Source: Nannocystis sp. SCPEA4 (lineage in GTDB: Bacteria > Myxococcota_A > Polyangia > Nannocystales > Nannocystaceae). From it: a stretch of 64,000 bases of DNA. Position numbers and translations under genes: made by a program. The notes under the pieces were generated by a model. That model searched no databases and was not told where the DNA came from. It saw only the letters and a program-made list of their open reading frames with translations. The DNA is taken from positions 297,329 to 361,328 of the forward strand of contig NZ_JAPNJX010000021.1 in assembly GCF_026626685.1 (NCBI RefSeq), in the 5' to 3' direction. This document shows positions 17,830 to 64,000 of this stretch, piece by piece; position 1 is the stretch's first letter; each line of letters opens with the position of its first letter.

Positions 17830-17950
17830 CTTCTCTCCATACCGCCGCGACGCACGGCATCGGGCCGAGACGCCGCGCTCCGCGCTGAAACCCGCGACGC
17901 GACGGCCCGCTTGCCTGCAGGCGGGCGAGCGTTCAACCTGTCCAGGCTCC

Positions 17951-22335: not shown

Positions 22336-23820
22336 ATGACGCTGAAGATTGCAGGCAAGTGGTGGCTCGCGGTCCCGGTGGCGGTCGGGCTCGCAGGTTG
22401 CGGGGACTCCGGCAACGCGACGGGGACCGACTCCGGGACGATGACCCAGGGGACCGTGGATCCCACCCTCACGGGCACCGCCACCACGCCGACGACCAGC
22501 AACAGCGCGACCGACACGGACACCGGCGGGTCGATGTCGAACAGCGCGACGATGGCGACCACGAGCGTGCCGACGACGTCGACCACCGACGCGACGGCGA
22601 CGTTGACGGCCGGGCCGACCACCGACGCGACCACGACGACCACGAGCGACACGACCACCACCGGCACCACGACGAACACCGACACCACCGGCAACACCAC
22701 CGGCGGCGTGTGCCAGCCGGGCGACCCCGGCAACCCGGGCATGGCGGAGAAGAGCTACATCTTCATCCCCAGCCAGGACCTCGACGACGTCGCCAAGGTC
22801 AACACCCAGACCTTGATCGAGGAGGCGCGCTACAAGATCGGTCCCGGAGGCGAGAGCGCCTCGCGCACGGCGGTCAGCGCCGACGGCCGCTACGTCGTCG
22901 TCAACAACCGCCAGACCGGGCGCAGCACCATGCTCGCCGCCAACGTCGACGACTGCGTCGACACCAACGGCAACGGCATGATCGACACCTCGCAGAGCAG
23001 CGCCGACGTGCGCCCGTGGGGCCAGGACGAGTGCATCCTCTGGCAGATCCAGTGGCCCTACGGCGGCGCCTGGGACGACGGCCCGCGCGGCGTGACCTGG
23101 ACGCCCGGCACCTGGGACACCAACGTCTGCGCCTACGTCGATCCGAAGGTGTGGATCGGCTACATGGCGGCCGATCAGACCAGCGTGCACCTCGTGCGCG
23201 TGGCCGTGAACGGCACCGTCGAGGAGACCATCGCCGTGCCGGGCTGGAACGGCAGCGGCTTCGCGCCCTACGGCGCCGCGCTCGACCCCGACTTCAAGCC
23301 GTGGTTCTCGAGCCTGCGCGGCGAGTTCGTGCGCGTCAACACCGACGTGAACCCGATCACCGTCGACCGCTTCACCCCGCCGGGCAACGTGCAGTCGTAC
23401 GGCTTCACCGTCGACCCCGACGGCGACCCGTGGTTCGGCGGCAACTGCGGCCCGATCACCCGCTTCGACCCCGACACGATGCAGTTCATCGCCATCCCCG
23501 GGACCGAGGGCGGCTGCTGGCGCGGCGTCACGGCCGACAAGAACTTCACGTGGGTCGCCAACAACCAGCCGTGCGCGCTGGCCCAGGTCGATCGCACCAC
23601 CAACACCCTCGTCGCCCAGCACAACACCAACCCGTGCTCGACCGCCATCGGCCTCAGCGTCGACATCGAGGACTACGTGTGGCTCGTCGATCAGGGCGGC
23701 TGGGCGTGGAAGATCGATCCCGACAACGTCGCGGGCATGCAGCAGGTCATCGTCCCCGGCAGCCACTACGTCTACTCCGACATGACGGGCGGCCAGCTGA
23801 AGAGCGTCATCCCGATGTGA
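22336..23820 (+). CDS. Lipoprotein with a long T/S-rich linker and a C-terminal beta-rich (propeller-like) domain, function unknown
   Basis: Start at MTLKIAGKWWLAVPVAVGLAGC (lipobox); ~110-aa T/S/D/G linker; W/G-rich C-terminal domain. The listed ORF starts 48 codons upstream; that 5' extension is less plausible. Confidence 0.65.
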   Translation: MTLKIAGKWWLAVPVAVGLAGCGDSGNATGTDSGTMTQGTVDPTLTGTATTPTTSNSATDTDTGGSMSNSATMATTSVPTTSTTDATATLTAGPTTDATTTTTSDTTTTGTTTNTDTTGNTTGGVCQPGDPGNPGMAEKSYIFIPSQDLDDVAKVNTQTLIEEARYKIGPGGESASRTAVSADGRYVVVNNRQTGRSTMLAANVDDCVDTNGNGMIDTSQSSADVRPWGQDECILWQIQWPYGGAWDDGPRGVTWTPGTWDTNVCAYVDPKVWIGYMAADQTSVHLVRVAVNGTVEETIAVPGWNGSGFAPYGAALDPDFKPWFSSLRGEFVRVNTDVNPITVDRFTPPGNVQSYGFTVDPDGDPWFGGNCGPITRFDPDTMQFIAIPGTEGGCWRGVTADKNFTWVANNQPCALAQVDRTTNTLVAQHNTNPCSTAIGLSVDIEDYVWLVDQGGWAWKIDPDNVAGMQQVIVPGSHYVYSDMTGGQLKSVIPM

Positions 23821-24118: not shown

Positions 24119-27100
24119 ATGAGCGCCGGCGACTACGAGATCGCGGAGCAGCTCCACGACGGTCGGACCTCGCAGGTGTTCCGCGGGGTCCGTCGTCGCG
24201 ACGGCGCGCGCGTGATCCTCAAGGCCCTGCGGCGCGAGTACAGCGACAGCGCCGGCGCGGCGCGGCTCGAGCGGGAGGCCGAGCTGCTGCGTCGCTGCGC
24301 CGGGCCGGCGGTGCCCGAGGTGCTCGCGCTCGAGCGCTGGGACACCAGCCCCGTGTTGGTCCTGCGCGACATCGGCGGGCTCGCGCTGCACCGCTACCGC
24401 AAGGGGCGCGAGCTCTCGCTGGTGGCCCGCCTCGACCTCGCGCTGGCGGCGAGCGGCGTGCTCGCGCTGGTGCACGCCGCCGGTGTGGTCCACCGCGACA
24501 TCAAGCCGGCCAACATCATCGTCCACGGCGAGGGCGAGCGCGTGCAGCTGATCGACTTCAGCGCCGCCGCGGCCGGCGAGGGCACGCTGCAGTACATGTC
24601 GCCCGAGGCGACCGGCCGCACCGGCCGCGACGTCGACCCGCGCAGCGACTACTACGCGCTCGGCGTCACCCTCTACGAGCTGTTCACCGGGCGCCTGCCG
24701 TTCGCCAGCGACGACCCGCTCGAGCTGGTCCACGCCCACCTCGCGCGCGTGCCCGCGGCCCCGGCCGCGCTCGAACCTGTCCTCGGGGACACGCTGTCGC
24801 GGATCGTCCTGCGCCTGCTCGAGAAGAGCCCCGAGGCCCGCTACCAGAGCCTCGACGGCCTGCGCCACGACCTCGCCCGCTGCCGCGACGCGTTCGCCCG
24901 CGGCGAGGTCCCCGAATTCACGCCGGCCACGCGCGACCGTCCGCCGGGACTGCAGCTGCCGACGACCCTGTTCGGCCGCGACCGCGAGCTCGCCGAGCTC
25001 CTGTCCGTTTGGACAGGCGTACGCGCCGGCGCCCGCGCCCTCGCGCTGGTGGCCGGCCCCTCGGGCGCGGGCAAGTCGAGCATCCTGCGCGCGCTCGCCG
25101 GGGCCGTGCGCGAGGCCGGTGGCCGCTTCGTCACCGGGCGCTTCGAACAGGTCGAAAGGGTCATCCCCTACGCCGGCCTCCTGGCCGCGCTCGACCGCCT
25201 GCTGCGCCGCGCCCTCGCCGAGCCCGAGGAGCGCCTCGCCGCCACCCGCACCGCCCTGCTCGCCGCCCTCGGCGACAGCGCGGCCGGCCTCGCCGACGTC
25301 CTGCCCGCGCTCGCGCTCGTCACCGGCGTCCGCCCGCGCCCGATCGAGGCCCTGCCCGCCGAGGCCGCCGGTCGCTTCCACGCCGCCGTCACCCGCCTCG
25401 TGCGCGTGTTCGCCGGCCCCGACGCCCCGCTCGTGCTCGCCGTCGACGACCTCCAGTGGGCCGACCCCGCCAGCGTCCGCCTGCTCGACGAGCTCGCGCG
25501 CGAGCCCGGCCTCGATCACCTGCTCCTCGTCGGCTGCTACCGCGACGACGAGCTGGCCGCCGGTCACCCGCTGCGCGGGCTCGTGGCCGACCTGCGCGTC
25601 CACCTCGGCCCGCTCGCCGCCGCCGACGTCGCGCAGCTGATCGGCGAGACGCTCGCCTGGCCCGAAAGACAGGCCGAGGCCCTCGCCGCCGTCGTCGCCG
25701 CCAACACCGACAACAACCCGCTGTTCGTGCGCGCCTACCTGCGCTGGCTGTTCGACCAGGGCCTGCTCGTGTGGTCGCCCGAGCACCAGGGCTGGGCCTG
25801 GGACGCCGCCCGCACCGCCCGCGCCGCTCCCGGCGACGACATCGTCGCGCTGATGACCCGCCGCCTCGCCGCCCTCGACCCCGACGTCCGCGCCGCGCTC
25901 GAGGCCGCGGCCTGCATCGGCGCCCGCTTCGACGTCGCCCGCCTGGCCGGCCTGCTCGGCCGCGACCCGGCCGCCGTCAAGGCCGCGCTCGCACAGGCGA
26001 TCGAGCGCAACCTCGTGCTCGCCGCCGACGCCGACGTCTACGAGTTCGTCCACGACCGCGTGCAGCAGGCCGCCTACGCCGCGCTCGCGCCCGCGGAGCG
26101 CCTGCGCCTCCACCTCGCGCTGGCCCGCGGCCTGCTCCGCGACGCCGCACCACCTGTCCTCGAGGACATGCTCTTCGAGATCGTCGGCCACTACAACCTC
26201 GCCGCCGCCGGCCTCGCGGACCCCGACGAGCGCCTGCGCCTGGCCGAGCTCGACCTCGCGGCCGGCCGCAAGGCCAGGGGCGCCGCCGCCTTCGCCTCCG
26301 CGGTGCAGCTGCTGCGCCAGGGCATCGCCGCCCTGCCCGACGACGCCTGGTCGACCCACTACCCGCTGGCCTTCGCGCTGCACCGCGACTGCATGGAGTG
26401 CGAGCACTTCGCCGGCGACCCCGACGCCGCCGAGGCCCGCTTCGCCCCGCTGCTGGCCCGCGCCCGCGACGACGTCGACCGCGCCGCCGTCCACGACCTC
26501 AAGGTCGGGCTCGAGACCGACCGCGCCAACGTCCAGGCCGCGCTCGTGGCCGGCCGCGCCGGCCTCGCCCTGCTCGGCGTGCAGGTGCCCGCCAGCGCCT
26601 CGCGCCTGAGCCTCCTGCGCGAGCTGGCGACCGTCCGCTGGCTCCGCGGCCGCGCCCCGCTGCGCGACCTCGCCGACCTGCCCGAGGCCCAGGACGTCCG
26701 GATCCGCCGCTCCCTGCGGCTCCTGTGCACGATGTGCGTCTCGGCCTACTACCACCAGCCCGACCTCGCCCTGGTGTACGGCCTGCGCGCGCTGGTCCTC
26801 GCGCTGCGCCACGGCGTGATCGGCGAGTCGGCGATCGCCGTCGCCCTCTACGCCTTCATCCACGTCCACATGTTCAACGACCCCGCCGGCGGCCGGGCCC
26901 TGCAGGACGCCGCCTACGCCCTCGCCGATCGCTTCGGCGACCCGCGGATCCGCCCGCAGCTGGCCAACTACTGCGGCGTCTACGTCGACGCCTGGCTCGA
27001 GCCGCTGGCCGCCGTGGCCCCGCGGCTCGAGCGGGAGATCGATCGCGCGATCCAGATCGGCGACCCGTCGATGGCGCTCTACATCGCCGCCGGCGCGATG

Positions 27101-29268: not shown

Positions 29269-30651
29269 ATGGTCTCGCGCGGTCGCTTGCGACGTTCGGA
29301 CATCGTCGGCGACTGCCCCCACCCGCGCGGACGGGCCCGTGCTTCCGTCGTCCTCGGCCTCGCGACGCTGCTCGGCCTCGCCTGTCGCCCCGACGACCCG
29401 CCCGCCGACAAACCTGTCCCTCCGGACAGCCCCGCCTCCACCCTCACCGTCTACCGGTTCGCTCGCGTCGTCACCGCCCCGCACCAGGTCGTCGAGGGCG
29501 GCGCCGTGGTCGTCGACGGCAAGCGCTTCCACGGCGTCCTCGCGGCCGGCGAGGCCCTGCCCGCCGGGGCCGAGATCGTCGACTACACCCGCTACACCGC
29601 GATCCCCGGGCTCATCGACGCCCACACGCACATCACCTTTTGCTGGGACCCCGCGTGGGGCGAGCGGGCCCCGCACGACCCGTTCCAGATCGCCCAGTCG
29701 AAGGCGCAGCTGCAGCCGCTGGTGGCCGCCAACGCCCGCACGCTGCTGTCGCTCGGCGTCACCACCATCCGCGACCTCGGCTCCGACAACATGCTCGACC
29801 TCGAGACCGGGCGGAAGATCGAGGCCGGCGAGCTCGTCGGCCCGCGGATCTTCGGCGCCGGCGACGGCGTGTGGTCGTCCCGGCTCGCGCCCAAGGAGTC
29901 GAACCGGCCCGGCCAGGCCGACGGCCCCGAGCAGATCGCCGCCACCGTGCGCCGCGAGATCGACGCCGGCGTGCACGTCGTCAAGCTGTGGGCCTCGACC
30001 GGCAGCGACGACGACCTCACCGGCGAGCGCACCTACTCGTACGAGGAGATCAAGGCCGCCGTCGACGTCGCCCACGCGCGCGGGATCCCCGTCGCCGTCC
30101 ACGACACCCTCGGCGTCGTCACCGACGACATCGTCCGCGCCGGCGCCGACAGCGTCGAGCACCCGCGTCACCTGTCCCCCGAGACACTCGCGGCGATGCG
30201 CGAGCGCGGCGTCGCCTACGTGCCGACCATCCACCACAATCACTACTACCGCGACAACATCGAGCGCTTCGGCTTCAGCCCCGACAAGCGCGCCGCCTTC
30301 GACGCCTTCATCGCCGACAACGTCGCCACCGCTCGCGCCGCCCACGCCGCCGGCGTAGCGATCGTCATGGGCTCCGACGCCGTCTACACCGCCTTCGACC
30401 AGAGCACGCGCGAGCTCGACGTGTTCGTCCGCGACGTCGGCATGACCCCCATGGAGGCGCTCGCCACCGCCACCACCAACGCCGCCAAGCTGCTGCGCAT
30501 CGACGACCGCCTCGGCGCGATCCGGCCGGCCTACCTCGCCGACTTCGTGGTGCTCGACGGCGACCTGTCGCAGATCGATCACATCCACAACGTGGTCGCG
30601 GTGGTGAAAGAGGGCGCCGTCGTGTTCGAGAAGTCAGCGGCGAGCAATTAG
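29269..30651 (+). CDS. Amidohydrolase-family metal-dependent hydrolase lipoprotein (imidazolonepropionase / Xaa-Pro dipeptidase-like)
   Basis: Lipobox LLGLAC; GLIDAHTHI metal-binding motif; VHVVKLWAS...; GIPVAVHD; 460 aa. Confidence 0.75.
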   Translation: MVSRGRLRRSDIVGDCPHPRGRARASVVLGLATLLGLACRPDDPPADKPVPPDSPASTLTVYRFARVVTAPHQVVEGGAVVVDGKRFHGVLAAGEALPAGAEIVDYTRYTAIPGLIDAHTHITFCWDPAWGERAPHDPFQIAQSKAQLQPLVAANARTLLSLGVTTIRDLGSDNMLDLETGRKIEAGELVGPRIFGAGDGVWSSRLAPKESNRPGQADGPEQIAATVRREIDAGVHVVKLWASTGSDDDLTGERTYSYEEIKAAVDVAHARGIPVAVHDTLGVVTDDIVRAGADSVEHPRHLSPETLAAMRERGVAYVPTIHHNHYYRDNIERFGFSPDKRAAFDAFIADNVATARAAHAAGVAIVMGSDAVYTAFDQSTRELDVFVRDVGMTPMEALATATTNAAKLLRIDDRLGAIRPAYLADFVVLDGDLSQIDHIHNVVAVVKEGAVVFEKSAASN

Positions 30652-46353: not shown

Positions 46354-46550
46354 GGTCGAAACCTCCGCCGCGACCACGGCCGAGTTCGTGGTTCTCTCGG
46401 AGCAGTGCCCCGTTCCGTCATGGTCGGCGCGCGTGCTCGCGGGGCGAACTCGCGCCTGGGGCCCGCCTGACCGAAAGAATACCGACATGACGTCGCATGA
46501 TTCTCAAGACATGTCCGAACGGCCACTCCGCCCCCGCCTCGAACGCGCAC

Positions 46551-47534
46551 TCACGCGACGTGGACGACGACCTTGCCGGTGGTGCTCCGCGCCGCCATCG
46601 CCTCGTGCGCCCGCGCGACCTCGGCGAGCGCGAACGTCTGCCCGATCACCGGCTCGATCCGCCCCGACGCCGCCCATTCGAGCACCTCGACGAGGGCAGC
46701 CTGTCGCTCCGCGAGCGGCAGGGTGAACGTGGCGAAGCCGACGATCGACTGGTTCTGCGCGAGCAGCCCGGTCATCTGCTCGCGGCTCCACGCGGTGTCG
46801 AACATGCAGTCGGCGCCGAACAGCACCAGCCGTCCGCGCGGCGCCAGGGCTTCCAGGCTGCGGGCCGCGATCGCCCCGCCGCCGGCCACGAACACCACGT
46901 CGGCGCCGCGCCCCTCCGTCGCCTCGCGCACCTGGGCCGGCCACGCCGGATCGGCCATGTCGACCGTCGCCGCCGCGCCGAGGCGCGTCACCAGGGCGCG
47001 CTTGTCCGCGCGGCTCGCCGCCCCGATCACCCGCCCGGCCCCGAGCGCACGCGCCAGCTGCACCAGCAGCGTCCCCACGCCGCCGGCCGCCGAGGGCACG
47101 AACACCGACTCGCCGCCGCGCAGCTGGGCGCCGAGCCGCAGCCCGAGCAGGGCCGTGGGCCCCTGCGCCGGCAGGGCCACCGCCTGCGCGAACGACAGCG
47201 CGTCGGGGATCGCCAGTACGGTCGCCGCCGGCGCGACCGCGTACTCGGCGAGGCCGCCCTGATTCGGCAGCGTGGCGACCACGCGCGTCCCGGCCGCGAG
47301 CCCGCGCACCGCCGACCCGACCGCCTCGACCACGCCCGCCGCCTCGAGCCCCGGCACGAACGGCAGCGGCGGCGCGCCCATCATGTGCCCGGCGCGCTGC
47401 CCCAGATCGGTGTAGTTGAGCCCCGCGGCGTGCACCCGCAGCAGGACCTCGTGCTCACCGGGCTGCGGCACGGCCACCTCCTCGCAGCGGAGCTCCTCGG
47501 GCCCGCCGAACCTGTGAATCCGGATCGCTCTCAT
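46551..47534 (-). CDS. NADPH:quinone oxidoreductase / zinc-type alcohol dehydrogenase-like (MDR superfamily)
   Basis: 327 aa; G-rich NAD(P) fold region GAAGGVGTLLVQLARALGA; typical Qor architecture; divergent from the AraC regulator gene. Confidence 0.8.
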   Translation of the reverse strand: MRAIRIHRFGGPEELRCEEVAVPQPGEHEVLLRVHAAGLNYTDLGQRAGHMMGAPPLPFVPGLEAAGVVEAVGSAVRGLAAGTRVVATLPNQGGLAEYAVAPAATVLAIPDALSFAQAVALPAQGPTALLGLRLGAQLRGGESVFVPSAAGGVGTLLVQLARALGAGRVIGAASRADKRALVTRLGAAATVDMADPAWPAQVREATEGRGADVVFVAGGGAIAARSLEALAPRGRLVLFGADCMFDTAWSREQMTGLLAQNQSIVGFATFTLPLAERQAALVEVLEWAASGRIEPVIGQTFALAEVARAHEAMAARSTTGKVVVHVA

Positions 47535-47602
47535 CCTCGTCCCATCTCCTGCGCGCCGACCGGCGCGCCGGGTGGTCTATAGTCCGGGACGACAGGACGA
47601 AC

Positions 47603-48574
47603 ATGCGTCAGAAATCCGAATTCATGGTTCGAGCGTCCGGCCGTCGTCCCGGGATCGACGTGCTCGCCGACGTCCTGCGCGGCGTGCGTCTGCAGAGCCG
47701 CGTGCACGCCCGCTACGAGATGACCGCACCGTGGGGCATGCGCATCGACAGTTCGCCGCACCCGCTGTTCTACGCGGTCATGCGCGGCAGCTGCCTGCTG
47801 ACGACCGACGACGCCGAGCTGGCGCTGGCCGGCGGCGACTTCGTGTTCATCCCCGCGGGCACGCGGTTCAGCCTGCGCGACCGCCGAGGCACGAAGGCGC
47901 TGCCGGTGGCCGAGGTGTACGCCACGCGGGTCCCGCTGCAGTGCGGCGGCCTCCTCCATTACGGCGGCGGCGGGGCCCCGGTCACGATCGTGGCCGGCTC
48001 GTTCGCCTTCGAGGGCGAGGCCTTGAGCCCATTGGCCGGACAGCTGCCGACCCTGCTGCACGTCAAGGCCGACGCGGCCGACTCGCCGCGCTGGCTGGAG
48101 CCGACCCTGCGCTTCGTCGCCGCCGAGATCGAGGCCAAGCAGCCCGGCCACGAGACGGTCGTCAGTCGCCTCGCCGACGTGCTGTTCGTCCAGGCGCTGC
48201 GCGCTCACATGTCCTCGGAGTCAGGCGAGAGCGGCTGGCTGCGCGCGCTCGTCGACCCGCGGATCGGCGCGGTGCTGCAGCGCGTCCACGAGAAGCCGCA
48301 GGCGCCGTGGACTCTGGCCGGCCTGGCGCGCCTGGCCGGCATGTCGCGCTCGGTGTTCGCCGAGCGCTTCAAGGCGCTGGTCGGCGACGCCCCGCTGGCC
48401 TACGTCACCCGCTGGCGCATGCACCGGGCGATGGCCCTGCTGCGCGACCGCGACGCCTCGCTGGCCGACGTCGCCCGCGCCGTCGGCTACGAGACCGACG
48501 GCGCGTTCGGCAAGGCGTTCAAGCGGCACGTGGGCGTCACCCCCGGCCAGTTCCGCCGCGACGCGCCCGCGTGA
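47603..48574 (+). CDS. AraC-family transcriptional regulator (cupin-like N-domain + HTH_18)
   Basis: C-terminal HTH ...WTLAGLARLAGMSRSVFAERFKALVGDAPLAYVTRWRMHRAMALL...ADVARAVGYETDGAFGKAFKRHVGVTP; AGGACG upstream of ATG. Confidence 0.85.
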   Translation: MRQKSEFMVRASGRRPGIDVLADVLRGVRLQSRVHARYEMTAPWGMRIDSSPHPLFYAVMRGSCLLTTDDAELALAGGDFVFIPAGTRFSLRDRRGTKALPVAEVYATRVPLQCGGLLHYGGGGAPVTIVAGSFAFEGEALSPLAGQLPTLLHVKADAADSPRWLEPTLRFVAAEIEAKQPGHETVVSRLADVLFVQALRAHMSSESGESGWLRALVDPRIGAVLQRVHEKPQAPWTLAGLARLAGMSRSVFAERFKALVGDAPLAYVTRWRMHRAMALLRDRDASLADVARAVGYETDGAFGKAFKRHVGVTPGQFRRDAPA

Positions 48575-48592
48575 ACCTCGCGTGGCGCAGGG

Positions 48593-48616
48593 AGCACATG
48601 CCCCCAGAGACATGTG
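48593..48616. repeat. Two copies of the 14-bp-period element (AGCACATGCC-ccca-GAGACATGTG) between convergent stops of the AraC regulator and the lipoprotein gene
   Basis: Read directly. Confidence 0.55.
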
Positions 48617-48634
48617 CTTCGCGCCGCCCGGCGG

Positions 48635-50118: not shown

Positions 50119-51513
50119 GTGTCTCCCAAGCCCGCTCCTCCTCGCTGGCGCCGCCGGCTCCTCGTCGGCCTCGGCGTCGCGCTGCTGGCCGCGATCGTCT
50201 TCCTCGCCGGGTGGATCTTGCCGACGGCGACCGGCTACGTGGCCAAGAACGCCTGCTCGGCCGTGTTCGTGGCCGGCCGCGCTCCGGACCGCGTCGGCGC
50301 CGAGGACCTCGCGCCGCAATCGTACGTGTCGTTCACCGTCGACCGCGAGCAGCGACGCGTCCGCGCCAGCGTGTTCGGCCTGGCCGCGCGGACGGCCGTG
50401 TACCGCGACGGCCTCGGCTGCGCCCTGGCGATCGACGCCACCCCGGAGTCGCTGCAGGCCCAGACCCTCGCGCTGGCGCACGCGCCCGCGAGCGACGCTC
50501 CGTGGCCGGCCGGCGAGGGCGAGCGCCTGGCCGCCGATCCGCCCGGGCTCGACCGGGCCGCGCTCGACGCAGCCGTCGCCGCCGCGTTCGCCGAGCCGAA
50601 CCCCGACTCGCTCCGCCGCACCCGCGCCGTCGTCGTCGTCCACGGCGGGGCGATCGTCGCCGAGCGCTACGCCGACGGCTTCGACCGCGACACGCGGCAC
50701 CTCGGCTGGTCGATGTCGAAGAGCATCACGAGCGCGCTGGTCGGGATCCTCGTCGGCCGCGGCCTGCTGACCCGCGACGCACCCGCGCCGGTGCCCGCGT
50801 GGGCCGACGACCCGCGCCGCGCGGTCACCCTCGACCAGCTGCTGCGGATGAGCAGCGGCCTCGAGTTCGAGGAGCGCTACGGCCCGCTCGCCGACGCCAC
50901 GCACATGCTGTTCGAGGTCGACGACGCCGCCGACGTGGCCCTGGCGCGGCCGCTCGCGCACGACCCCGACACCGTGTTCTCCTACTCGAGCGGCACCACC
51001 AACATCCTCAGCTGGATCGTGCGCCGTCAGTTCCCCGAGCTCGCGGCCTACCACCGCTTCCCGCACGAGGCCCTGTTCGCGCCGCTCGGCATGCGCTCCG
51101 CCGTGTTCGAGACCGACGCCAGCGGCACCTTCCTCGGCTCCTCGTTCGTCTACGCGACCGCGCGCGACTGGGCCCGCTTCGGTCTGCTGTACCTGCGCGA
51201 CGGCGTGTGGGACGGCGCGCGGATCCTCCCGGAGGGCTGGGTCGCGTACAGCCGCACGCCGACGAAGACCGGCACCGGCGACTACGCGGCGCACTTCTGG
51301 GCCAACGCGCCCGACCCCGCCGACCCGAACAAGCGCCGCCTGCCGCACGTGCCCGCCGACGCCTACCAGGCCTCCGGCTTCCAGGGCCAGGCGGTCCTCA
51401 TCGTGCCGTCGCGCGACGCGGTGATCGTCCGCCTCGGCATGACCCACGACCGCGGGGCCTGGGACCTCGATGGCTTCGCGTCCGCGGTGCTCGCCGCGCT
51501 GCCCGCCACCTGA
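50119..51513 (+). CDS. Serine hydrolase of the beta-lactamase/esterase family (class C-like), membrane-anchored
   Basis: N-terminal TM; SxxK motif SMSKSITS; YSSGTTN (Y-x-N-like); 464 aa; GTG start with no clear SD, so start is uncertain. Confidence 0.7.
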   Translation: MSPKPAPPRWRRRLLVGLGVALLAAIVFLAGWILPTATGYVAKNACSAVFVAGRAPDRVGAEDLAPQSYVSFTVDREQRRVRASVFGLAARTAVYRDGLGCALAIDATPESLQAQTLALAHAPASDAPWPAGEGERLAADPPGLDRAALDAAVAAAFAEPNPDSLRRTRAVVVVHGGAIVAERYADGFDRDTRHLGWSMSKSITSALVGILVGRGLLTRDAPAPVPAWADDPRRAVTLDQLLRMSSGLEFEERYGPLADATHMLFEVDDAADVALARPLAHDPDTVFSYSSGTTNILSWIVRRQFPELAAYHRFPHEALFAPLGMRSAVFETDASGTFLGSSFVYATARDWARFGLLYLRDGVWDGARILPEGWVAYSRTPTKTGTGDYAAHFWANAPDPADPNKRRLPHVPADAYQASGFQGQAVLIVPSRDAVIVRLGMTHDRGAWDLDGFASAVLAALPAT

Positions 51514-51563
51514 GGCCACACGCCGGAGTTCGGCGTGGAAGCTGGTCTTTCACACCTATTCCA

Positions 51564-51629
51564 AAGGACATGATGCAGAGAACATGCCCGATCGGGCATG
51601 CCTTCCGTGACATGCCCTACGGGCCTGTC
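51564..51629. repeat. Tandem array, 5 copies, 14-bp period (10-mer core NGNACATGCC + 4-nt spacer): AGGACATGAT-gcag-AGAACATGCC-cgat-CGGGCATGCC-ttcc-GTGACATGCC-ctac-GGGCCTGTCC
   Basis: Read directly from the sequence; CATG (or one-mismatch variant) at the same phase in every unit; lies between convergent gene ends (50119..51513 + and 51808..53052 -). Confidence 0.85.
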
Positions 51630-51739
51630 CGGAGCAGCGCCACGCTCGCCTGTCCCGACGCGCCGGCGACATGCTCGTCTCGCCCTCCCGTCTGTGCCGA
51701 GCGGCCGAGCGGTCCTGCCGCCGCATCCCCGGCCTGTGG

Positions 51740-51791
51740 CGTCATGTCCTCCCGAGCATGCTCCATCAGACATGCTCTTTAAAACATGTCT
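51740..51791. repeat. Tandem array, 4 copies, same 14-bp family: CGTCATGTCC-tccc-GAGCATGCTC-catc-AGACATGCTC-ttta-AAACATGTCT
   Basis: Read directly; ~110 bp from the previous array in the same intergenic region; locally AT-rich. Confidence 0.8.
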
Positions 51792-51807
51792 ATTCAAAAA
51801 ATTCGCG

Positions 51808-53052
51808 TCACAGGTCCTCCACCGCGACGCTCGTGCACTCCGGCGGCGCCGTGATCGGATTGCAGCGGGCCGGATTGCCGTCGGGGAATTCGAGCCAGTA
51901 GGTCATCCCGTCGACGGCCGCCGGGAAGTCGTCCTTGAGCATGTGGATCCCCGCGGCCTTGGCGGCCGCCATCCGCTCCGTGCATTCGCCGTCGTCGTCG
52001 CCCGCGCCGCACACGTTGGTGGCGATCAGCATCCTCGCCGCGTGCGCCTGCGTCAGCGCCTCGGTCTCGTCGATCCCGAGCTTGGCGATCGCCGCCCACC
52101 CCGCGGTGAACTGGTTCGGCGTCGCGCGGGCGAACATCGCCCGGCCGTCCAGCGACGTGAACCCGTCGGTGTAGTTCTCCGCGTGGCCGTCCTCGACGTT
52201 GAGCAGCACCACCAGGACCTGCCCGCGCACCTGCGCCAGCGTCGGCCAGCCGTCGGCCTCGAGCGCCGCGCGCACGTTCAGGTGGTCGCCGCGCAGGTCG
52301 TCGGGCGTGAACAGCTGCTCGGGCGGCAGCGCCTCGCGGATCACGTCGTCGATCGCGTCGAGGTCGCCGGCGCCGATCGGCAGCCCGCCGGTCGAGTCCT
52401 TGATCTCGATCCACACCACGATCGGCACGTGCTCCGGGTGCGCCAGCGACCACCCGCCGATCATCCCCAGGCACCCGGACAGGGTCGAGCAGGTCGCCAC
52501 CGAGTCGATCACGGAGATGTGATAGACCTCGAACTCGCTCACGCCCCTGTGCACGTCGAGCTCGAACGCCCGCACGCCCTGCGCGTCGAGCTGCACGTCG
52601 AGCGGCGCGTGGCTGTACTCGTGGCTGGCGTCGAACGCGATCAGCGGCTCGAGGTGGTAGCTGTTGTGCGTGCCCTTGACCTGCACGTGCTGCAGCGTCA
52701 ACACGTCGTCGAGCGATCCGCCGCCGGTCGTGTCGGTGTCACCGGTCGTCGTCGATGTCGAGCTCGTCGAGCTCGTCGCCGTCGAGGTCGTCGACGTCAG
52801 CGCCTCGCTGGTCGCCGTCGCCGCCTCCGACGTCGAGGTCGTCGACGTCGTCTCCCCGCCGGAGCCCGAGCCGGACGTCGGCGTCGTGGTGGTCGGCGCG
52901 TCCGTGGTCGTCCCGGTGCCCGTGCTCGTGCCTGTGCCCGTGCTCGTGCCCGTCGCCGTCTCGCCCGTCGCGCCGCCCGGGGCTGGATCGCCGCAACCCG
53001 CCAGCCCCAGCGCTCCACACAACAACCCGCGTATCAGCCCGCTCGCGCGCAT
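51808..53052 (-). CDS. PI-PLC X-domain-like phosphodiesterase lipoprotein (Ca-dependent phosphatidylinositol-specific phospholipase C-like)
   Basis: Start MRASGLIRGLLCGALGLAGC (lipobox) with GAGGA ~8 nt upstream; long T/S/G linker; catalytic-region motif VKGTHNSYHLEPL. Confidence 0.65.
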   Translation of the reverse strand: MRASGLIRGLLCGALGLAGCGDPAPGGATGETATGTSTGTGTSTGTGTTTDAPTTTTPTSGSGSGGETTSTTSTSEAATATSEALTSTTSTATSSTSSTSTTTGDTDTTGGGSLDDVLTLQHVQVKGTHNSYHLEPLIAFDASHEYSHAPLDVQLDAQGVRAFELDVHRGVSEFEVYHISVIDSVATCSTLSGCLGMIGGWSLAHPEHVPIVVWIEIKDSTGGLPIGAGDLDAIDDVIREALPPEQLFTPDDLRGDHLNVRAALEADGWPTLAQVRGQVLVVLLNVEDGHAENYTDGFTSLDGRAMFARATPNQFTAGWAAIAKLGIDETEALTQAHAARMLIATNVCGAGDDDGECTERMAAAKAAGIHMLKDDFPAAVDGMTYWLEFPDGNPARCNPITAPPECTSVAVEDL

Positions 53053-53160
53053 GCGAGCATCCTCGCACGCCTCGAGCGCGTCTGTCACGGCCACGTGTCG
53101 GCGCACCGGTGTCGTGCGATGCTGCGTGGCCCCGGTGCGCATGATCCCGCAGCCCTTCCC

Positions 53161-53791
53161 CGTCGTCCGCGACTTCGTCCGCGACCGCGATCCGGCGTTC
53201 TACGGCCGCTACCGCCTGTGGTTCCAGCAGGTCGCGCCCTGGTTCGACGATTACCGGGCGCTGATCCCCGTGCGGCCGGGCGCGACCGCCGAGCTCGACG
53301 CCACGCTGGAGGCGCTGCCTTCCCAGAACTGGCCGTTCCAGCGCATCAACCGCGACGAGCACGCCGGCGGCTGGTCGCTCGACCGCGGCGAGCCGGGTCA
53401 GGACCTGCTGTCGCTCGAGCAGCTGTCGGACGTCTGCTACATCGACGCGCGCAACCTGCACTGGGCGCTCGATCGCCTGGCCGTGTTCCTCGTCGACGCG
53501 CACCTGTTCGTGCGCTCGACCGGCGACGGCGACGATCGCTGGCTCGACGAGTACACCCTCGCCGAGGGCTGCGCCGAGGTCCATCGCTGGCTGTGCCCCG
53601 ACCCCGAGTGGGCCGGCGTGTTCAGCGTGTACGAGTCGCTGGTGCGCGAGCGCCCCGACGACCCGCAGCTGCGCCGCTTCGTCGCCTTCGCCCACCGCGA
53701 GCGGGCCGCCGCGCTCGGCGGACCGCGCAGCCGCCAGAGCCGCGAGCACCTCGACCGCGCCCGCGAGCTCGACCCCGACGGTGCGGCGTGA
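53161..53791 (+). CDS. Hypothetical protein (210 aa)
   Basis: Normal-composition C-terminal part of listed ORF 52664..53791, starting MIPQPFPVVRDFVRDRDPAFYGRYRLWFQQ...; divergent from the PLC-like gene. Confidence 0.5.
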
Positions 53792-53794
53792 CGA

Positions 53795-53818
53795 AGGACA
53801 TGTCCGCAGGGACATCTC
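53795..53818. repeat. Two copies of the 14-bp-period element: AGGACATGTC-cgca-GGGACATCTC (contains the perfect palindrome GGACATGTCC)
   Basis: Read directly; fills the 57-bp gap between convergent stops (53791 and 53849). Confidence 0.7.
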
Positions 53819-53848
53819 CTGCCAATGGGCCCGAACCGCCGGCGCGCG

Positions 53849-54868
53849 TCAGCCCCGGCGCCCGCGCGAGCGCCAGATCACCGCGTCGACGATGTAATGA
53901 TGGAAGTTCACCGTCTGATGGCAGACCAGCACGAACGGCAGCACGTCCCACGACATGCGGCCGGTCGCCTGTCCGAGCGTGAAGTAGAACCCGGCGCCGA
54001 GCGCCAGGCACACCAGCGCGTAGCGCAGCGCCTGGTCCGGCTGGCACAGGCGTGACAGGAACGGCCGCTGCGGGTCGACGCCGCGCTCGAACCGGCGCAC
54101 GTTCATCGCCCACACGAACAGCAGGTACTGCGCGTTGTGCCAGATGTTGATGAACAGCCAGCCGGGCGTGATCTCCGGGATCGCGATGTAGCTGACCGCC
54201 GTGATCACCACGTGCGACAGCACGAACAGCGCCTGCCCGGCGCTGCGCGGTCGGCCCGATCGCAGCGACCGCAGGTGACGCAGCGTCCACGCGGCCAGCG
54301 CCGCGAGGGCCACCACCCCGGCGGCCGTCACCAGCAGCTTCGGCACCGGCGGCAGCCACAACGGCCCGCCGTAGAACAGCGCCGGTCCCTGGTGCGCGCG
54401 GTGCAGCAGGCCCCACAGCGGCCACGCGAACACCACCACGTCGCTGAGGCGATCGCCGGCCGGGTCGACGCCGGCGCTGCGGTGGTAGGCGCGGGCGATC
54501 CCGTAGCTCTGGCGGGTGTAGTGCCACGATTGCCACAAGAAATAGATGGTGTTGACCGCCAGCACGCCGCCGAGGGTCACCGCCCCGGCCGTGGCCGCGA
54601 ACACCAGCGGCGGCAGGCCGAACAGCAGGAACGCGTGGGCTCGCGCGCCGTGGCGGTCGAAGGCGATCCGCGTGAACGTCGACGCCGCGTGGGGATACGC
54701 GAGCAGCCAGAAGTCGACGGCGATCACCGCGGCGAACAGCGCCGGCGACAGGCAGGCCGCTCCGCCGAGCACCAGCGCCAGCGCCAGCACGCCGACGATC
54801 AGCGACAGATCGAAGCGCGGCCCGCGGAGCCAGTCGACCGAGCGCACCGCGTCGTCGGACCCGCGCAC
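53849..54868 (-). CDS. Polytopic integral membrane protein, unknown family (His-rich motifs HNAQY / HHYIVD suggest a membrane desaturase/hydroxylase-like di-iron fold; speculative)
   Basis: GGAGG 9 nt upstream of GTG start; ~8 hydrophobic segments; 339 aa. Confidence 0.6.
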   Translation of the reverse strand: MRGSDDAVRSVDWLRGPRFDLSLIVGVLALALVLGGAACLSPALFAAVIAVDFWLLAYPHAASTFTRIAFDRHGARAHAFLLFGLPPLVFAATAGAVTLGGVLAVNTIYFLWQSWHYTRQSYGIARAYHRSAGVDPAGDRLSDVVVFAWPLWGLLHRAHQGPALFYGGPLWLPPVPKLLVTAAGVVALAALAAWTLRHLRSLRSGRPRSAGQALFVLSHVVITAVSYIAIPEITPGWLFINIWHNAQYLLFVWAMNVRRFERGVDPQRPFLSRLCQPDQALRYALVCLALGAGFYFTLGQATGRMSWDVLPFVLVCHQTVNFHHYIVDAVIWRSRGRRG

Positions 54869-54970
54869 GGCTAGCGCCTCCGAGCCCGCGTCGGGACGGC
54901 CTGATGATCGCAGCCGCGGCCGCAGCCCTGAAGGCTCACGACGAGCACGTCTCCCCTTCGAGGTCGCGCG

Positions 54971-55276
54971 TCAGGTCGGCGGCGGCGGCAGCGGGCGCGG
55001 CTCCGGCTCCGGCTTGGTCTCGGGCTGCGGCTGCGGCTCGGGCTGCGGCTTCACGTCGGGCTTCGCGTCGGGCGGAGGCGGCGCGTACGTCGTGGTCTTC
55101 GCCGCCTCCGGCTGCTTCGGCGCGGTCTCCTTGTCGCCCGGCTTGGTCGCAGTGGCCCCGCCGGTGCAGCCGGCCAGCGCCACCGCGCCGCCCGTGAGCA
55201 GGAGCAGGACCGACGCCACCGCCCTCAGGGGGGCGCGACGCGTGGAGGATCCGGAGGAGCGCGATGCGGTCGCCAT
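54971..55276 (-). CDS. Small proline/glutamate/lysine-rich lipoprotein (101 aa)
   Basis: Lipobox ALAGC; PEPQPQPETKPEPEP low-complexity tail; paralogous in architecture to 55459..55725. Confidence 0.6.
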   Translation of the reverse strand: MATASRSSGSSTRRAPLRAVASVLLLLTGGAVALAGCTGGATATKPGDKETAPKQPEAAKTTTYAPPPPDAKPDVKPQPEPQPQPETKPEPEPRPLPPPPT

Positions 55277-55361
55277 GCCGTCACGCTAACACGCCGGCTC
55301 GCCGGCGACACGCGATCTCTCGCGCTCGCGACCGCCCCGGTCGCTCGTGAACAACTCTAAA

Positions 55362-55441
55362 CAGACATGCCCGATCGGCCATGTCCCGATCGACATGCTC
55401 CGACGAGCATGCCTTCGAGTGCATGTCCGATCGGACATGTT
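55362..55441. repeat. Tandem array, 6 copies, 14-bp period: CAGACATGCC-cgat-CGGCCATGTC-ccga-TCGACATGCT-ccga-CGAGCATGCC-ttcg-AGTGCATGTC-cgat-CGGACATGTT
   Basis: Read directly; CATG in phase in all six units; sits between the two paralogous P-rich lipoprotein genes. The ATG-containing frames across it create spurious listed ORFs (55347.., 55367.., 55381..). Confidence 0.9.
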
Positions 55442-55458
55442 CGAATGCGCGGTCCGGC

Positions 55459-55725
55459 TCAGGTCACCGGCGGCGGGTGCTCGGGCGGTGCCGGCTCGGG
55501 CGTCGGCTCGGGCTTCGGCTCCGGCGTCGGCTCGGGCTTCGGGTCGGGCGCCGGCTCGGCGATCGGCTCTTGCGCCGGCTTCGGTTCGGCCTGCTGGATC
55601 GGCTTGGACGGCGAGGTCTGGGCGCAGCTCTCGAGGCCGAGGAGCGCAGCGCCGCCGAGCAGGACCGTGACGGCGGCTGCGGCCACGCCGGAGGCGAGCC
55701 GCTGCGTGGAGGGGGGCGTGGGCAT
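55459..55725 (-). CDS. Small proline/glutamate/lysine-rich lipoprotein (88 aa)
   Basis: Signal peptide with lipobox LGLESC; tail KPEPTPEPKPEPTPEPAPPEHPPPVT. Confidence 0.6.
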   Translation of the reverse strand: MPTPPSTQRLASGVAAAAVTVLLGGAALLGLESCAQTSPSKPIQQAEPKPAQEPIAEPAPDPKPEPTPEPKPEPTPEPAPPEHPPPVT

Positions 55726-61592: not shown

Positions 61593-64000
61593 CTACCGCG
61601 TCCGCGCGCTCAGCCACGCGCGCAGACCATCCCTGTCCCTTGGGACATCATCGATCCGCCCGCCCGGCTCGGCGTACAGCCCCGGCGCGTACCCGCGCCG
61701 CGGCGCCAGCAGCCCGAGCCCCAGCGGCAGCACTGCGTACTCGGGCTGCAGCACGATCGCCACGCCGAGCACCGTGTCGACGCGGATCAGCGAGCCCTCC
61801 TCGCCCTCGATCGCCAGCGTTTCGTCATCGACGAACGCCATCGCCTTCATCGGCTCGGGCACCACGACCTCGCGCCCCGGATCGTCCGGCCCGGCGACGA
61901 ACCGCACCGCCGGTCCCGGCGTGGCGATTCCCAGCACCCCGCTCGGGCTGAACGCCAGCAGCGGCACGAACGGCAGCGCCATCGGCCGCTCGCGCACCGC
62001 GCCGTCGTCGTAGAACAACAGCCCATCTTCGCTCGCCAGGATCAGCGCAGCCGCCGTCCCGTCCGGGTCGAGCGCCACCCGCGGCTTCCTCGCGCGCGCG
62101 ACCGTGTCGGCGCTCGCCAGCGCGATCGGCTCGTCGTCGCCGACGTGCAACGCGAAGCTCGTGCCGGTCTCCGTGGCGGCGATCAGATCGCCGCCGGCGT
62201 GCAGGGCCCACAGCGCTTCGACCGCGCCCGGGAGCTGCCAGCGGCGCGGCTCGGCGCCGCCGGTGAACGCCAGCACCGACCCGTCCGCCAGCCCGAGCGC
62301 GAACGTCGGCGCGCGCTCGGCCAGCGCCACCGCCGTCACTTTGGCCTCGGTCGCGATCTGCCGCGCCGTCCCGTCGGCCGCGATCAGACAGGCATCCTTC
62401 GGCAGACCTGCCGCCAGCACCCGCCCCTGCCCGTCGACCGCCAGCGGCATCGTCTGGCGGTACTTGCGGTCGAGGGCCATCGGGCAGCGGATCGGCGTCC
62501 GCGCCCCGTCGCGCGCGCGCACCCGCTCGAGCCCCGCGGGCACCGCGAGCGAGCCCACCAGCGCGTGGCTGTCGTCCGGCGCCACCACCAGCCACATGTC
62601 CTTCGAGACATCCGGCATCGCGTCCGCGGGCCACCACCACAGGTCGCGCTCGTGCGTCGCCACGAACCCGCCGTCGGCCGTGAACGCGGCCCGCCCGCGC
62701 CCGCCGACCGCGAGCGACCGCACCATCACGCCCGACGCCATCCACCACAGCGTCCAGCGGCCGTCGAAGCGGATCGCGAACCGATCGCCGCGCTCTGCCA
62801 CCACCATCCCGCCGTCGTCGCCGTGCAGCGCGTGGCGTTGCTCGTTCGATCCGTACAGGTCCCGCTCCCAGCGCGTCTCACCGGTCGCCGGGTCGAGCAG
62901 CACCAGCTGCGGCTCGATCCCGAATTGCGGCGGAAAGTTCGGCTTCGGCCGCCGCACCAGCGCCAGGTCGTCGCGCGTGAACCCCAGCAGCCCGCCGCCG
63001 AGCGGGTGCGGCGAGCGATCCGACAGGCGCATCGCCGTCTCACCGGCGACCAGGTACGACCCGCTCGGCGAGAACGCCCGCGGGATCCCCAGCTCCTGCA
63101 GCTCCACCTGCGCCTCGCCCGTCACCAGCACGGTCCGGCGTCGCGGGTTCGCCACCGCGATCGTGCGCCCGTCGGGGCTCAGCGCCGCGGTGCCGACCTG
63201 GTCGAAGGGCAAGGTGTGCGATCGGGCCGGCTGCGCCGTCAAGTCCCAGGCATACGCGGCGGGCCGCGCGGGCCCGGCCAGCAGGCGCCAGCCGAGCGCC
63301 GCCAGCGTCTCGCCGCCGCGCGACAGCTCCCAGCGGTGCGTCGCGTACCACACTCCCTGGGCGGCGGGCGTCGCCGACACGTCGATCGTCTCCGGAGGCG
63401 CGTCGCCGCGGAACACCACCCCGTGACGCGCCGAGATCGCCGCCCACACCGGAGCGTCCGCGGCCGCCACCACCCAGCCGAGCGGGCTTTGCAGGTCGAT
63501 CACCTGTTCTCCGCGACCTGTCCCCAAGTTCCACTTCCACACGGCCCCGCCGGTGTCGACGCTCACCAGCCCACCGTCGGCCAGCGGCGCCAGCCGCTCG
63601 ATCGCGTGCCCGTGCCCGCGCAGCACCCGCTCCGGCGCCCCGCGAGCCACCGCCGCCTGCGCGATCAGCCGCGTCCGCCGCAGGTCGCCGTCGTCGCGCA
63701 GATCGACCTGCGCCAGCACGCGCAGCGCCTCCGCCGGATCCTCGCCCAGCACCCCCTGCGCCTGCGCCAGCAGGGCCGCGTTGGCGCGCCGCGACGCCTC
63801 GGCCTCGGCCGCCTCCGCCCGTCCGCGCGCCGCCTCCGCCGCGAGCTGCGCCGCCTGCACCCCGCGCACGTACGCCGCCGACGCGATGGCCAGCGCAAGC
63901 ACACCCAGCGCCCCGGCGACCGCCGCCGCCCGGTGTCGGCGCAGCCACAGGCGCAGCAATTCGCCCGGCTGATAGCGGTGCGCGTCGACCAGCCGCCCGG
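61593..64000 (-). CDS. WD40 / beta-propeller repeat protein with an N-proximal TM segment; the reading frame stays open to the window end, so the 5' end is probably outside the window (possibly the C-terminal part of a larger kinase-WD40 protein)
   Basis: Listed ORF 61593..63959 starts at TTG; the frame remains open through 64000. TM-like AAVAGALGVLALAIASAAYV; WD-like repeats (GHGHAIERLAPLADGGLVSVDTGGAVWKWNL ...). Confidence 0.6.
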   Translation of the reverse strand, partial: GRLVDAHRYQPGELLRLWLRRHRAAAVAGALGVLALAIASAAYVRGVQAAQLAAEAARGRAEAAEAEASRRANAALLAQAQGVLGEDPAEALRVLAQVDLRDDGDLRRTRLIAQAAVARGAPERVLRGHGHAIERLAPLADGGLVSVDTGGAVWKWNLGTGRGEQVIDLQSPLGWVVAAADAPVWAAISARHGVVFRGDAPPETIDVSATPAAQGVWYATHRWELSRGGETLAALGWRLLAGPARPAAYAWDLTAQPARSHTLPFDQVGTAALSPDGRTIAVANPRRRTVLVTGEAQVELQELGIPRAFSPSGSYLVAGETAMRLSDRSPHPLGGGLLGFTRDDLALVRRPKPNFPPQFGIEPQLVLLDPATGETRWERDLYGSNEQRHALHGDDGGMVVAERGDRFAIRFDGRWTLWWMASGVMVRSLAVGGRGRAAFTADGGFVATHERDLWWWPADAMPDVSKDMWLVVAPDDSHALVGSLAVPAGLERVRARDGARTPIRCPMALDRKYRQTMPLAVDGQGRVLAAGLPKDACLIAADGTARQIATEAKVTAVALAERAPTFALGLADGSVLAFTGGAEPRRWQLPGAVEALWALHAGGDLIAATETGTSFALHVGDDEPIALASADTVARARKPRVALDPDGTAAALILASEDGLLFYDDGAVRERPMALPFVPLLAFSPSGVLGIATPGPAVRFVAGPDDPGREVVVPEPMKAMAFVDDETLAIEGEEGSLIRVDTVLGVAIVLQPEYAVLPLGLGLLAPRRGYAPGLYAEPGGRIDDVPRDRDGLRAWLSARTR

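Follow-up and report, generated by a model that had tools for sequence, protein, structure and literature searches.

Two phased arrays lie between convergent genes

We analysed a 64-kb window (the whole stretch under study, 64,000 nucleotides) of Nannocystis sp. SCPEA4 (contig NZ_JAPNJX010000021.1, positions 297,329 to 361,328), in which two arrays of short CATG-containing repeats occupy the gap between two convergent genes. The gap measures 294 bp, from a plus-strand stop codon ending at 51513 to a minus-strand stop codon at 51808-51810, and it separates a gene for a serine hydrolase of the beta-lactamase family from one for a PI-PLC-C1 domain protein (Table 1). A 431-aa protein of Nannocystis sp. 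SCPEA4 matches the hydrolase encoded in the window at 100% identity, which puts the true start of the hydrolase probably near 50218. The consensus unit of the arrays is GGR-CATG-YCC followed by 4 variable nucleotides, and R and Y flank CATG in 86-87% of units. The original prediction, which had described a left array of five units and a right array of four in non-coding DNA, was correct on both counts, as it was in treating the DNA as myxobacterial, and all cores within an array were found to lie exactly 14 bp apart.

The phasing was then compared with random expectation. Four CATG words at 14-bp spacing occurred 5 times in the window, and three in 14-bp phase occurred 8 times, while neither pattern appeared in 100 dinucleotide shuffles, which confirms that chance does not account for the arrays. 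CATG-CATG distances of 14, 28 and 42 bp were observed 16, 9 and 6 times, respectively, against 0-3 times for other distances. In a larger sample of 408 kb of Nannocystis DNA, most of whose loci were chosen because they contain an array, the 14-bp spacing was found 256 times, compared with 4 times for 13 bp and 7 times for 15 bp. Tandem Repeats Finder scored only one array, and weakly (55364-55444, 65% matches). An unselected sample of 121 kb was assembled from the window and the syntenic loci of N. pusilla (L121), ILAH1 (L122) and a Logan assembly (L203); here CATG at 14 bp occurred 44 times against 1.3 expected, and 15 arrays of at least three units were present. This amounts to about 1 array per 8 kb, which extrapolates to about 1,500 per genome of 12-13 Mb.

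The repeating module is a 14-bp dyad

The unit had been described as a palindromic 10-mer followed by a 4-nt spacer. As a consensus this description held, but the 10-mer proved not to be the module: the perfect form GGRCATGYCC was not over-represented (1 in the window vs 0.25 expected), whereas the spacer-centred dyad TGYCC-N4-GGRCA was present 9 times where 0.30 was expected. This 14-bp dyad is thus the natural unit of repetition, and CATG is the CA|TG junction formed where two dyads abut head to tail. Read in this way, the left array covers 51571-51626 and contains a perfect module, TGCCCGATCGGGCA, at 51585-51598. The dyad was found 122 times in the 408 kb, 67 of them outside arrays, while other spacings from N0 to N10 and everted or direct arrangements gave 0-7 occurrences each (N3, 4; N5, 2). 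Dyads therefore occur singly as well as in arrays, which range from 2 to about 11 units.

The edges of the arrays were informative. At the would-be core just outside CATG runs, the inner TG was retained at 63 of 142 edges and the outer CA at 14 of 142 (p = 1.4e-8); the inner YCC was also enriched, and the outer GGR stood at background level. Because the edges keep the inner TG and not the outer CA, the arrays consist of whole numbers of dyads. Isolated modules were mostly flanked by C and G (cCTGTCC-N4-GGACAGg), and this is why "decayed" cores at the ends of arrays most often read CCTG or GCTG. The central 4 nt contained 42-59% A+T in a genome of 72% G+C and were not palindromic. Beyond the arrays the composition returned to background, with no GTAG-like asymmetric flank, T enrichment, terminal repeats, target duplications or defined ends.

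Units of one array resembled each other no more than random units did (z from -1.2 to 1.0 for direct identity at lags 1-4), and identity at this null level indicates that the arrays are not recent tandem duplications. For the same reason an ordinary tandem repeat or minisatellite was rejected. A few recent internal duplications of 14, 28 and 62 bp were nevertheless detected, for example at L026 3672, L067 86 and L098 3814/3876. An alternating-orientation super-unit of 28 bp was ruled out by the lack of direct similarity at lag 2, and disjoint hairpin pairs were ruled out because pairing strength did not alternate and even unit numbers were not in excess. As a separate observation, identical modules (agccTGTCCCGAAGGACAgaag) recurred at a 97-bp period (L028 1436, 1533 and 1630) and others at 63-65 bp (L019 2745/2810; L028 4704/4767), indicating that in some genomes the dyad is also embedded in longer tandem repeats.

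Arrays are concentrated just after stop codons

To place the arrays relative to genes, we used gene calls based on third-codon-position GC content. Of 84 arrays of at least three units, 30 lay at convergent junctions, 1 lay in a divergent gap, and about 39 adjoined the 3' end of a single gene. The stop codon of a coding-like open reading frame (ORF) faced the array within 400 bp in 70 of the 84, and in 40 such stop codons stood on both sides. Array edges lay a median of 17 bp from the stop codon, with many values between -3 and +25 bp. Within the window, every convergent junction with intergenic space (15106|~15160, 48574|48635, 51513|51808 and 53791|53849) carried an array or a pair of units.

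Isolated modules showed the same tendency in weaker form, with 34% located within 150 nt after stop codons compared with 10% of random positions. A further 28 of the 67 (42%) lay deep inside coding-like ORFs, still about 17 times the chance expectation, and this excess of single modules within genes points to a reader acting at the DNA level. Separately, in tandem contexts among 43 Nannocystis loci, the next gene started less than 340 bp from the array for 16 of 23 minus-strand genes vs 3 of 16 plus-strand genes.

The arrays are restricted to Nannocystis

A scan for runs of four CATG in 14-bp phase, covering 185,579 species with one genome each, gave at least 120 loci. Among the matches listed, 43 loci belonged to Nannocystis (pusilla, exedens, radixulma, bainbridge, punicea, RBIL2 and one metagenome-assembled genome), and all others were ordinary perfect tandem repeats lacking the YCC-N4-GGR pattern. 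The cyanobacterial matches (L013, L033, L054, L057, L060, L061, L093, L105 and others) were unrelated heptamer repeats of the CATGGGG/CATGCCC type. A viral origin was rejected, since all 79 IMG/VR matches to phased CATG were likewise ordinary perfect tandem repeats without YCC-N4-GGR. Arrays of the Nannocystis kind were present in independent assemblies of at least 8 genomes of the genus, so they are not assembly artefacts, and the original prediction's concern on this point can be set aside.

Relatives just outside the group gave a different result. The hydrolase of the window is 96% identical to that of N. pusilla and 87% identical to that of ILAH1, and arrays stood at orthologous intergenic sites in four Nannocystis lineages. 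In three relatives whose hydrolase is 74-78% identical (L123, L204 and L205; 61 kb, 71-74% G+C), no such arrays and no analogous periodic word were found. Among the matches listed and the relatives compared, the arrays are therefore restricted to the genus, and their origin within it is apparently recent. One of these relatives, from metagenome ERZ1066137 (hydrolase 74%), carries 4-5 direct repeats of GGACAnGG at 14-bp spacing in a 686-bp divergent gap (L205 1069-1140), which may have arisen by simple tandem duplication or may represent an array of related half-sites.

The searchable literature contained no paper linking Nannocystis to such repeats, and the RepRanger survey of repetitive extragenic palindromic (REP) sequences names neither myxobacteria nor CATG. 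Nor did the search bring up a methylome or useful RNA-seq data for Nannocystis. An Rfam search of 51400-55600 at E <= 1 returned no relevant match, only one spurious microRNA. The statement that this is not a described element thus stands for Rfam and the searchable literature.

Register and TG/CA letters evolve under purifying selection

We compared orthologous arrays between lineages, keeping in mind that these comparisons are few and non-independent. The six-unit array at 55363-55442 was in register with its orthologues in N. pusilla, ILAH1 and the Logan assembly, and the four-way alignment contained zero indels over 80 bp, with indels in both flanks. Mean pairwise identity was 0.94 for CATG, 0.47 for the adjacent R/Y, 0.53 and 0.65 for the G/C flank positions and 0.42 for the 4-nt centre, compared with 0.40-0.44 outside the array. 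When 11 orthologous pairwise comparisons were pooled, identity was 0.91 for the core, 0.63-0.71 for the flanks and 0.47 for the centre, and gaps were rare within arrays. The conservation of CATG and register while the rest drifts indicates purifying selection on the TG/CA letters and on the register, and on little else.

Turnover was also evident. Units 2-5 of the left array in the 294-bp gap are orthologous to a decaying array in N. pusilla (L121 11430-11481), where one CATG is now CCTA. The right array plus about 120 bp is unmatched in N. pusilla, whose gap of 126 bp has nothing corresponding to most of the inter-array interval. The junction at 53796 holds two units here and six in ILAH1 (L122 13857-13936).

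Recognition by a dimeric protein is the favoured interpretation

Taking these results together, we tentatively favour, as a serious possibility though short of a probable one, the interpretation that a dimeric protein specific to the lineage recognises the arrays, packs along them and forms a boundary at the 3' ends of transcription units. Each dyad, (c)TGYCC-N4-GGRCA(g), would be the site of one sequence-specific dimer. Its 5-4-5 layout is usual for helix-turn-helix dimers, and the AT-richer centre would not be contacted. Along an array, adjacent dimers would each occupy 14 bp and lie against one another in a helical wrapping; at this period, neighbours would be rotated by about 120 degrees round the helix. 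The original prediction had taken the 14-bp period as an argument against a same-face array of binding sites; the period does not speak against protein binding as such, 14 bp being the length of one 5-4-5 dyad site. The arrays may act as boundary elements that block or terminate read-through, that recruit a factor handling torsional stress, or both, and their location just after stop codons, chiefly at convergent junctions, suggests such a role.

Several features argue together for a rigid partner that reads sequence: the N4 centre fixed even in isolated modules, the near-invariant TG/CA, the non-palindromic centre, the abutment protected from indels, the strand symmetry, the copies within ORFs and the confinement to one genus. 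The last of these is expected if a trans-acting factor was gained in that lineage. The dyad geometry, the conserved letters, the free centre and the rigid register match those of cooperative operator arrays of dimeric DNA-binding proteins. Functional precedents exist in the E. coli bacterial interspersed mosaic elements (BIMEs), which bind IHF and gyrase, and in GapR, which is found at 3' ends in Caulobacter.

A broader form of the same idea is doubtful but worth stating. The arrays might constitute a genome-wide, sequence-encoded system that marks the ends of transcription units, in which an abundant lineage-specific protein polymerises on the dyads after stop codons and serves as a roadblock, an insulator or a platform for handling supercoiling between convergent genes. 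Such a system, on the same doubtful footing, would be a bacterial counterpart of eukaryotic protein-bound terminator or insulator arrays, with no described homologue.

A number of observations weigh against recognition by a protein. We infer both the binding protein and its effect on transcription, and can name no candidate for the former. A position in the 3' untranslated region (UTR) is expected equally of an RNA element. Some orthologous arrays decay or vary in copy number between close species, so not all are strongly constrained. The right array is preceded by its own terminator-like hairpin and T run, which sits immediately upstream of it in the sense of the PI-PLC-like transcript (Table 1); if this hairpin is functional, the right array is not the primary terminator of that gene and may be unnecessary for termination.

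The folding results belong on the same side. The predicted RNA folds of the six-unit array reached -43 and -52 kcal/mol on the two strands (z -5.7 and -6.4), and of 39 arrays next to a single gene end, 26 folded better on the sense strand and 13 on the antisense strand, a suggestive asymmetry. Watson-Crick complementarity between neighbouring units exceeded the prediction from the consensus (inner z 4.0, outer z 3.2, inverted lag-1 similarity z 4.95), and compensatory cells between neighbours numbered 75, compared with 52.9 +/- 12.9 in shuffles, of which 5 of 500 reached 75. Independent recognition of half-sites does not predict complementarity between neighbours. The effect is small (4.33 vs 3.89 matches per 10), and neither pairing within units (z -0.8) nor comparison at lag 2 shows it. 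Selection for a hairpin or cruciform could account for it, and so, equally, could a palindrome-templated (template-switch) mutation process that needs no function.

RNA hairpins, selfish repeats and methylation targets

The explanation that survives best beside the dimeric protein is a REP-like hairpin in RNA or single-stranded DNA, which we regard as somewhat unlikely. Here the dyad, or two neighbouring units, would fold within the 3' UTR into a hairpin whose stem measures 5-10 bp and whose loop has 4 nt, and would act, on the same somewhat unlikely footing, as a bidirectional terminator without a U tract, as a block to 3'-to-5' exonucleases, or both, as E. coli REPs reportedly do; no dedicated sequence-reading protein would be needed. 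The arrays stand where such an element should, immediately 3' of stop codons and between convergent genes. The strong predicted folds, the greater stability of the sense strand and the complementarity of adjacent units beyond the consensus, with the 4-nt centre left unpaired, all agree with it. The arrays of the 294-bp gap also folded better than shuffled sequence (z -2.9 to -3.9), the right one on both strands (z -3.1 and -3.9). In E. coli, REPs have been argued to act as dual terminators and stabilisers, and those between convergent genes correlate with higher expression of both (bioRxiv 10.64898/2026.03.23.713779).

A stem, however, should tolerate compensatory change, yet TG/CA is nearly invariant while the other stem positions drift. 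Even isolated modules keep a fixed loop of 4 nt (N4, 122; N3, 4; N5, 2), and the spacing between hairpins is fixed at zero. On the sense strand, the dyad stems showed no excess of G:U over A:C (62 vs 59), and loop sequences showed no strand bias apart from one position (51 vs 31). No common fold was found among the four orthologues of the six-unit array, no T run follows the arrays, Rfam offered no match, and many single modules lie within ORFs. Neither a preference for even unit numbers nor alternating pairing strength was seen along arrays. A within-unit hairpin with a GGR/YCC stem and a CATG loop was ruled out, since covariation was lacking and compensatory cells for within-unit structure were depleted (35 vs 54.7). 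The suggestion that the arrays are templates of a small structured RNA found no support on any of three counts, namely Rfam, conserved secondary structure among orthologues, and strand asymmetry in loops or wobble pairs; REP/BIME-like elements and protein-binding arrays, both proposed at the outset, remain the two live explanations.

It is improbable that the arrays are a selfish or mutational by-product, without host function and tolerated only in 3' intergenic DNA, either as a palindromic minisatellite that slippage or template switching at hairpins expands, or as a repeat dispersed by a REP-type (RAYT-like) enzyme. Such an origin would accommodate the recent 14-, 28- and 62-bp duplications inside some arrays, the gain or loss of whole blocks and the variable copy number between close species; insertions would be least harmful at the 3' location, and palindrome-templated correction would yield the complementarity of adjacent units. 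Against this, CATG and the register have been kept in situ across four lineages whose spacers are substitution-saturated, which points to selection and not to recent copying. Outside the dyad consensus the copies cannot be aligned with one another, so a master copy is lacking, as are terminal repeats, target duplications and defined ends. No neighbouring gene recurs, and no match to a Y1 transposase was found in 466 kb with approximate queries. The modules within ORFs cannot be 14-bp insertions, as these would shift the frame.

It is highly improbable that the clusters of CATG or RCATGY are methylation targets, whether as an epigenetic mark for a methyl-sensitive reader or as a relic of an NspI-type RCATGY restriction-modification system: both words are known specificities of such systems, and the best-conserved letters are exactly CATG with R/Y flanks in most units, but the over-represented word is the dyad with fixed N4 and neither CATG nor GGRCATGYCC, isolated modules are mostly flanked by CC/GG and lack CATG, and CATG is not avoided in the window (213 sites vs about 160 expected from a composition-based estimate).

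Comparison with known repeats and binding sites

We regard the arrays as a variant of the dispersed short palindromes of the REP/BIME and HIP1 kind for which no earlier description was found in the searchable literature; there is a real chance that the protein system is new. Like REPs and BIMEs, they are genus-specific, occur in hundreds to thousands of copies (for Nannocystis an extrapolated figure), consist of imperfect dyads found singly or in regular clusters, lie in 3' regions and often between convergent genes, and can form hairpins. BIMEs, moreover, bind proteins (IHF, gyrase) and affect termination and mRNA stability. Unlike REPs of 20-40 bp, however, the Nannocystis module measures 14-18 bp, with arms of 5 bp or, with flanks, 7 bp. 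Its copies abut at zero spacing on a strict 14-bp lattice without a preference for even numbers (doublets), conserve TG/CA tips and not a 5' GTAG, and share only a consensus, with no visible master. Moreover, 42% of isolated modules fall in ORFs, although the arrays themselves are extragenic. A tblastn search for RAYT or IS200 TnpA gave no match in 466 kb of Nannocystis DNA, a weak negative because this is about 4% of a genome and the queries were approximate. No recurrent gene family was found beside the arrays except a ubiquitous large paralogue cluster.

HIP1 (GCGATCGC) of cyanobacteria is also a short palindrome that a single lineage carries in huge excess, in non-coding and coding DNA alike, but it is 8 bp long and has no variable centre. 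To our knowledge, it neither forms abutted arrays nor concentrates at gene 3' ends. The DNA uptake sequences of Neisseria and the uptake signal sequences of Haemophilus are similarly lineage-specific words over-represented in genes and intergenic DNA, and pairs of them in inverted orientation often stand just downstream of genes and serve as terminators as well; they differ in being non-palindromic 9-12-mers without phased arrays.

Among protein-bound sites, the met-boxes of MetJ (8-bp period), the omega heptads, ParR/parC and TubR/tubC share a rigid non-helical period, proteins that polymerise along and around DNA and conservation of the contacted bases alone. They serve one or a few promoters or centromeres per replicon, in contrast to the extrapolated 1,500 or so 3'-end loci of Nannocystis. 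Helix-turn-helix sites of the 5-N4-5 type, such as the FNR box (TTGAT-N4-ATCAA), the Gram-positive LexA box (GAAC-N4-GTTC) and the 14-bp operators of phage 434, occur as tens of single promoter sites per regulon. Their likeness is one of geometry only (14 bp, conserved outer 5-mers, a free A/T-leaning 4-nt centre and strict spacing); their sequence differs, and they do not form abutted arrays after stop codons. CdbA, a nucleoid protein of M. xanthus, was rejected as a counterpart, as its motif is a GC-rich direct repeat, 4 bp apart, with one helical turn between DNA-binding regions, and not the dyad. The idealised unit GGACATGTCC fits the p53 half-site RRRCATGYYY letter for letter, and literature matches for this 10-mer all concern p53; the resemblance is a coincidence and implies no bacterial p53-like protein.

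Other known kinds of element were discarded. An intrinsic (Rho-independent) terminator does not fit because, although hairpins are possible, T is not enriched beyond the arrays, and the only nearby T run belongs to the separate hairpin at 51830-51795. CRISPR arrays have repeats of at least 23 nt and spacers of about 25 nt or more, compared with the 10-nt unit and 4-nt spacer seen here. A transposon remnant or MITE is contradicted by array lengths varying from 2 to about 11 units, by spacers unrelated between copies and by edges that fade to background. We also rejected the more specific idea that the 5 + 4 pair forms the inverted terminal arrays of a MITE: the two arms are alike at consensus level only and the arrays are out of phase (174 bp apart), while other loci have single arrays and N. 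pusilla has the left array alone.

Other arrays and features of the window

As originally predicted, arrays recur at six or more other places in the window; six further arrays or pairs are listed in Table 1 with the features of the 294-bp gap.

Table 1. Arrays, modules and flanking features in the 64-kb window
Feature	Position	Strand	Remarks
Two interleaved arrays offset by 7 bp	15092-15137		Convergent junction; cores AATG, CATG, CATG, TCTG, CATG, CATG, one per 7 bp
Two-unit pair GACATGTCC TCTC GAACATGTCC	17807-17830		Apparently divergent gap; exceptional placement
Two-unit pair	46493-46516		3' of ADH-like gene (46551-47576, -)
Two-unit pair	48594-48617		Between AraC/cupin gene stop (48574) and minus-strand gene stop (48635)
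Serine hydrolase gene, beta-lactamase family	50119-51513	+	Upstream convergent partner of the 294-bp gap
Left array, five 14-bp-phased units	51566-51631		CATG at 51569, 51583, 51597, 51611; CCTG at 51625
Inter-array interval	51632-51739		GC-rich; one out-of-phase CATG (51670), several out-of-phase CCTG
Right array, four units	51740-51791		CATG at 51743, 51757, 51771, 51785; AT-rich spacers, e.g. CTCTTTAAAA
Terminator-like hairpin, then T run TTTTTT (GAATTTTTTG)	51795-51830	-	Overlaps stop of PI-PLC-like gene; consensus scan only
PI-PLC-C1 domain protein gene	51808-53142	-	Downstream convergent partner of the 294-bp gap
Pair GGACATGTCC GCAG GGACATCTCC	53796-53819		Convergent junction; perfect module at 53801-53814
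Six-unit array	55363-55442		16 bp beyond stop of small Pro/Glu-rich protein gene (55459-55725, -)
Isolated perfect TGTCC-N4-GGACA modules	21737-21750, 24778-24791, 25002-25015, 26155-26168, 29415-29428, 61634-61647		

Apart from the interleaved arrays, small peaks at 6-8 bp in the CATG distance histogram of the 408 kb were due to extra CATGs within spacers. At 27749 a CATG pair falls within a coding sequence, probably by chance. Five of the six isolated modules in the window fall within 8 kb, four are inside long ORFs, and 5 of 6 are preceded by CC; none was present in the syntenic loci L121, L122 and L203. Three of them share one reading frame and encode P-V-(L/P)-x-D with the rare Pro codon CCT.

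The ADH-like gene and the AraC/cupin regulator gene (47420-48574, +) form a two-gene block (window 46517-48593) that is absent from the N. pusilla locus, and ILAH1 carries a different gene (FGE-sulfatase) in its place. Each gene of the block has its own short array, a pair, at its 3' end. The six-unit array lies between two genes for small proteins (54971-55276 and 55459-55725, both -), each combining a hydrophobic N-terminal segment with repeats rich in Pro, Glu and Lys (PEPKPEPTPEP and similar), which account for the 12- and 18-bp coding tandem repeats at 54998-55073 and 55492-55580. Coding tandem repeats were also found at 52774-52963 (periods 51/18/6), in the 5' part of the PI-PLC-like gene, and at 22580-22704 (periods 36/27/18/9), in the ORF at 21880-23820; both encode low-complexity protein repeats and are unrelated to the arrays.

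Significance for Nannocystis

Few features of bacterial genomes are as abundant and as poorly understood as REPs, BIMEs and HIP1, and the Nannocystis arrays offer an unusually clean grammar, consisting of a 14-bp dyad, a strict 4-nt centre, abutment at zero spacing, near-invariant TG/CA and a median position 17 bp past stop codons. With this grammar, and with array-free relatives at 74-78% protein identity, the purpose and the reader of such repeats become directly testable. The arrays are useful as strain-typing markers and are candidate portable terminators or insulators for engineering myxobacterial producers of natural products. If a protein does coat them, it would represent a novel means of delimiting transcription units in a very large, GC-rich genome.

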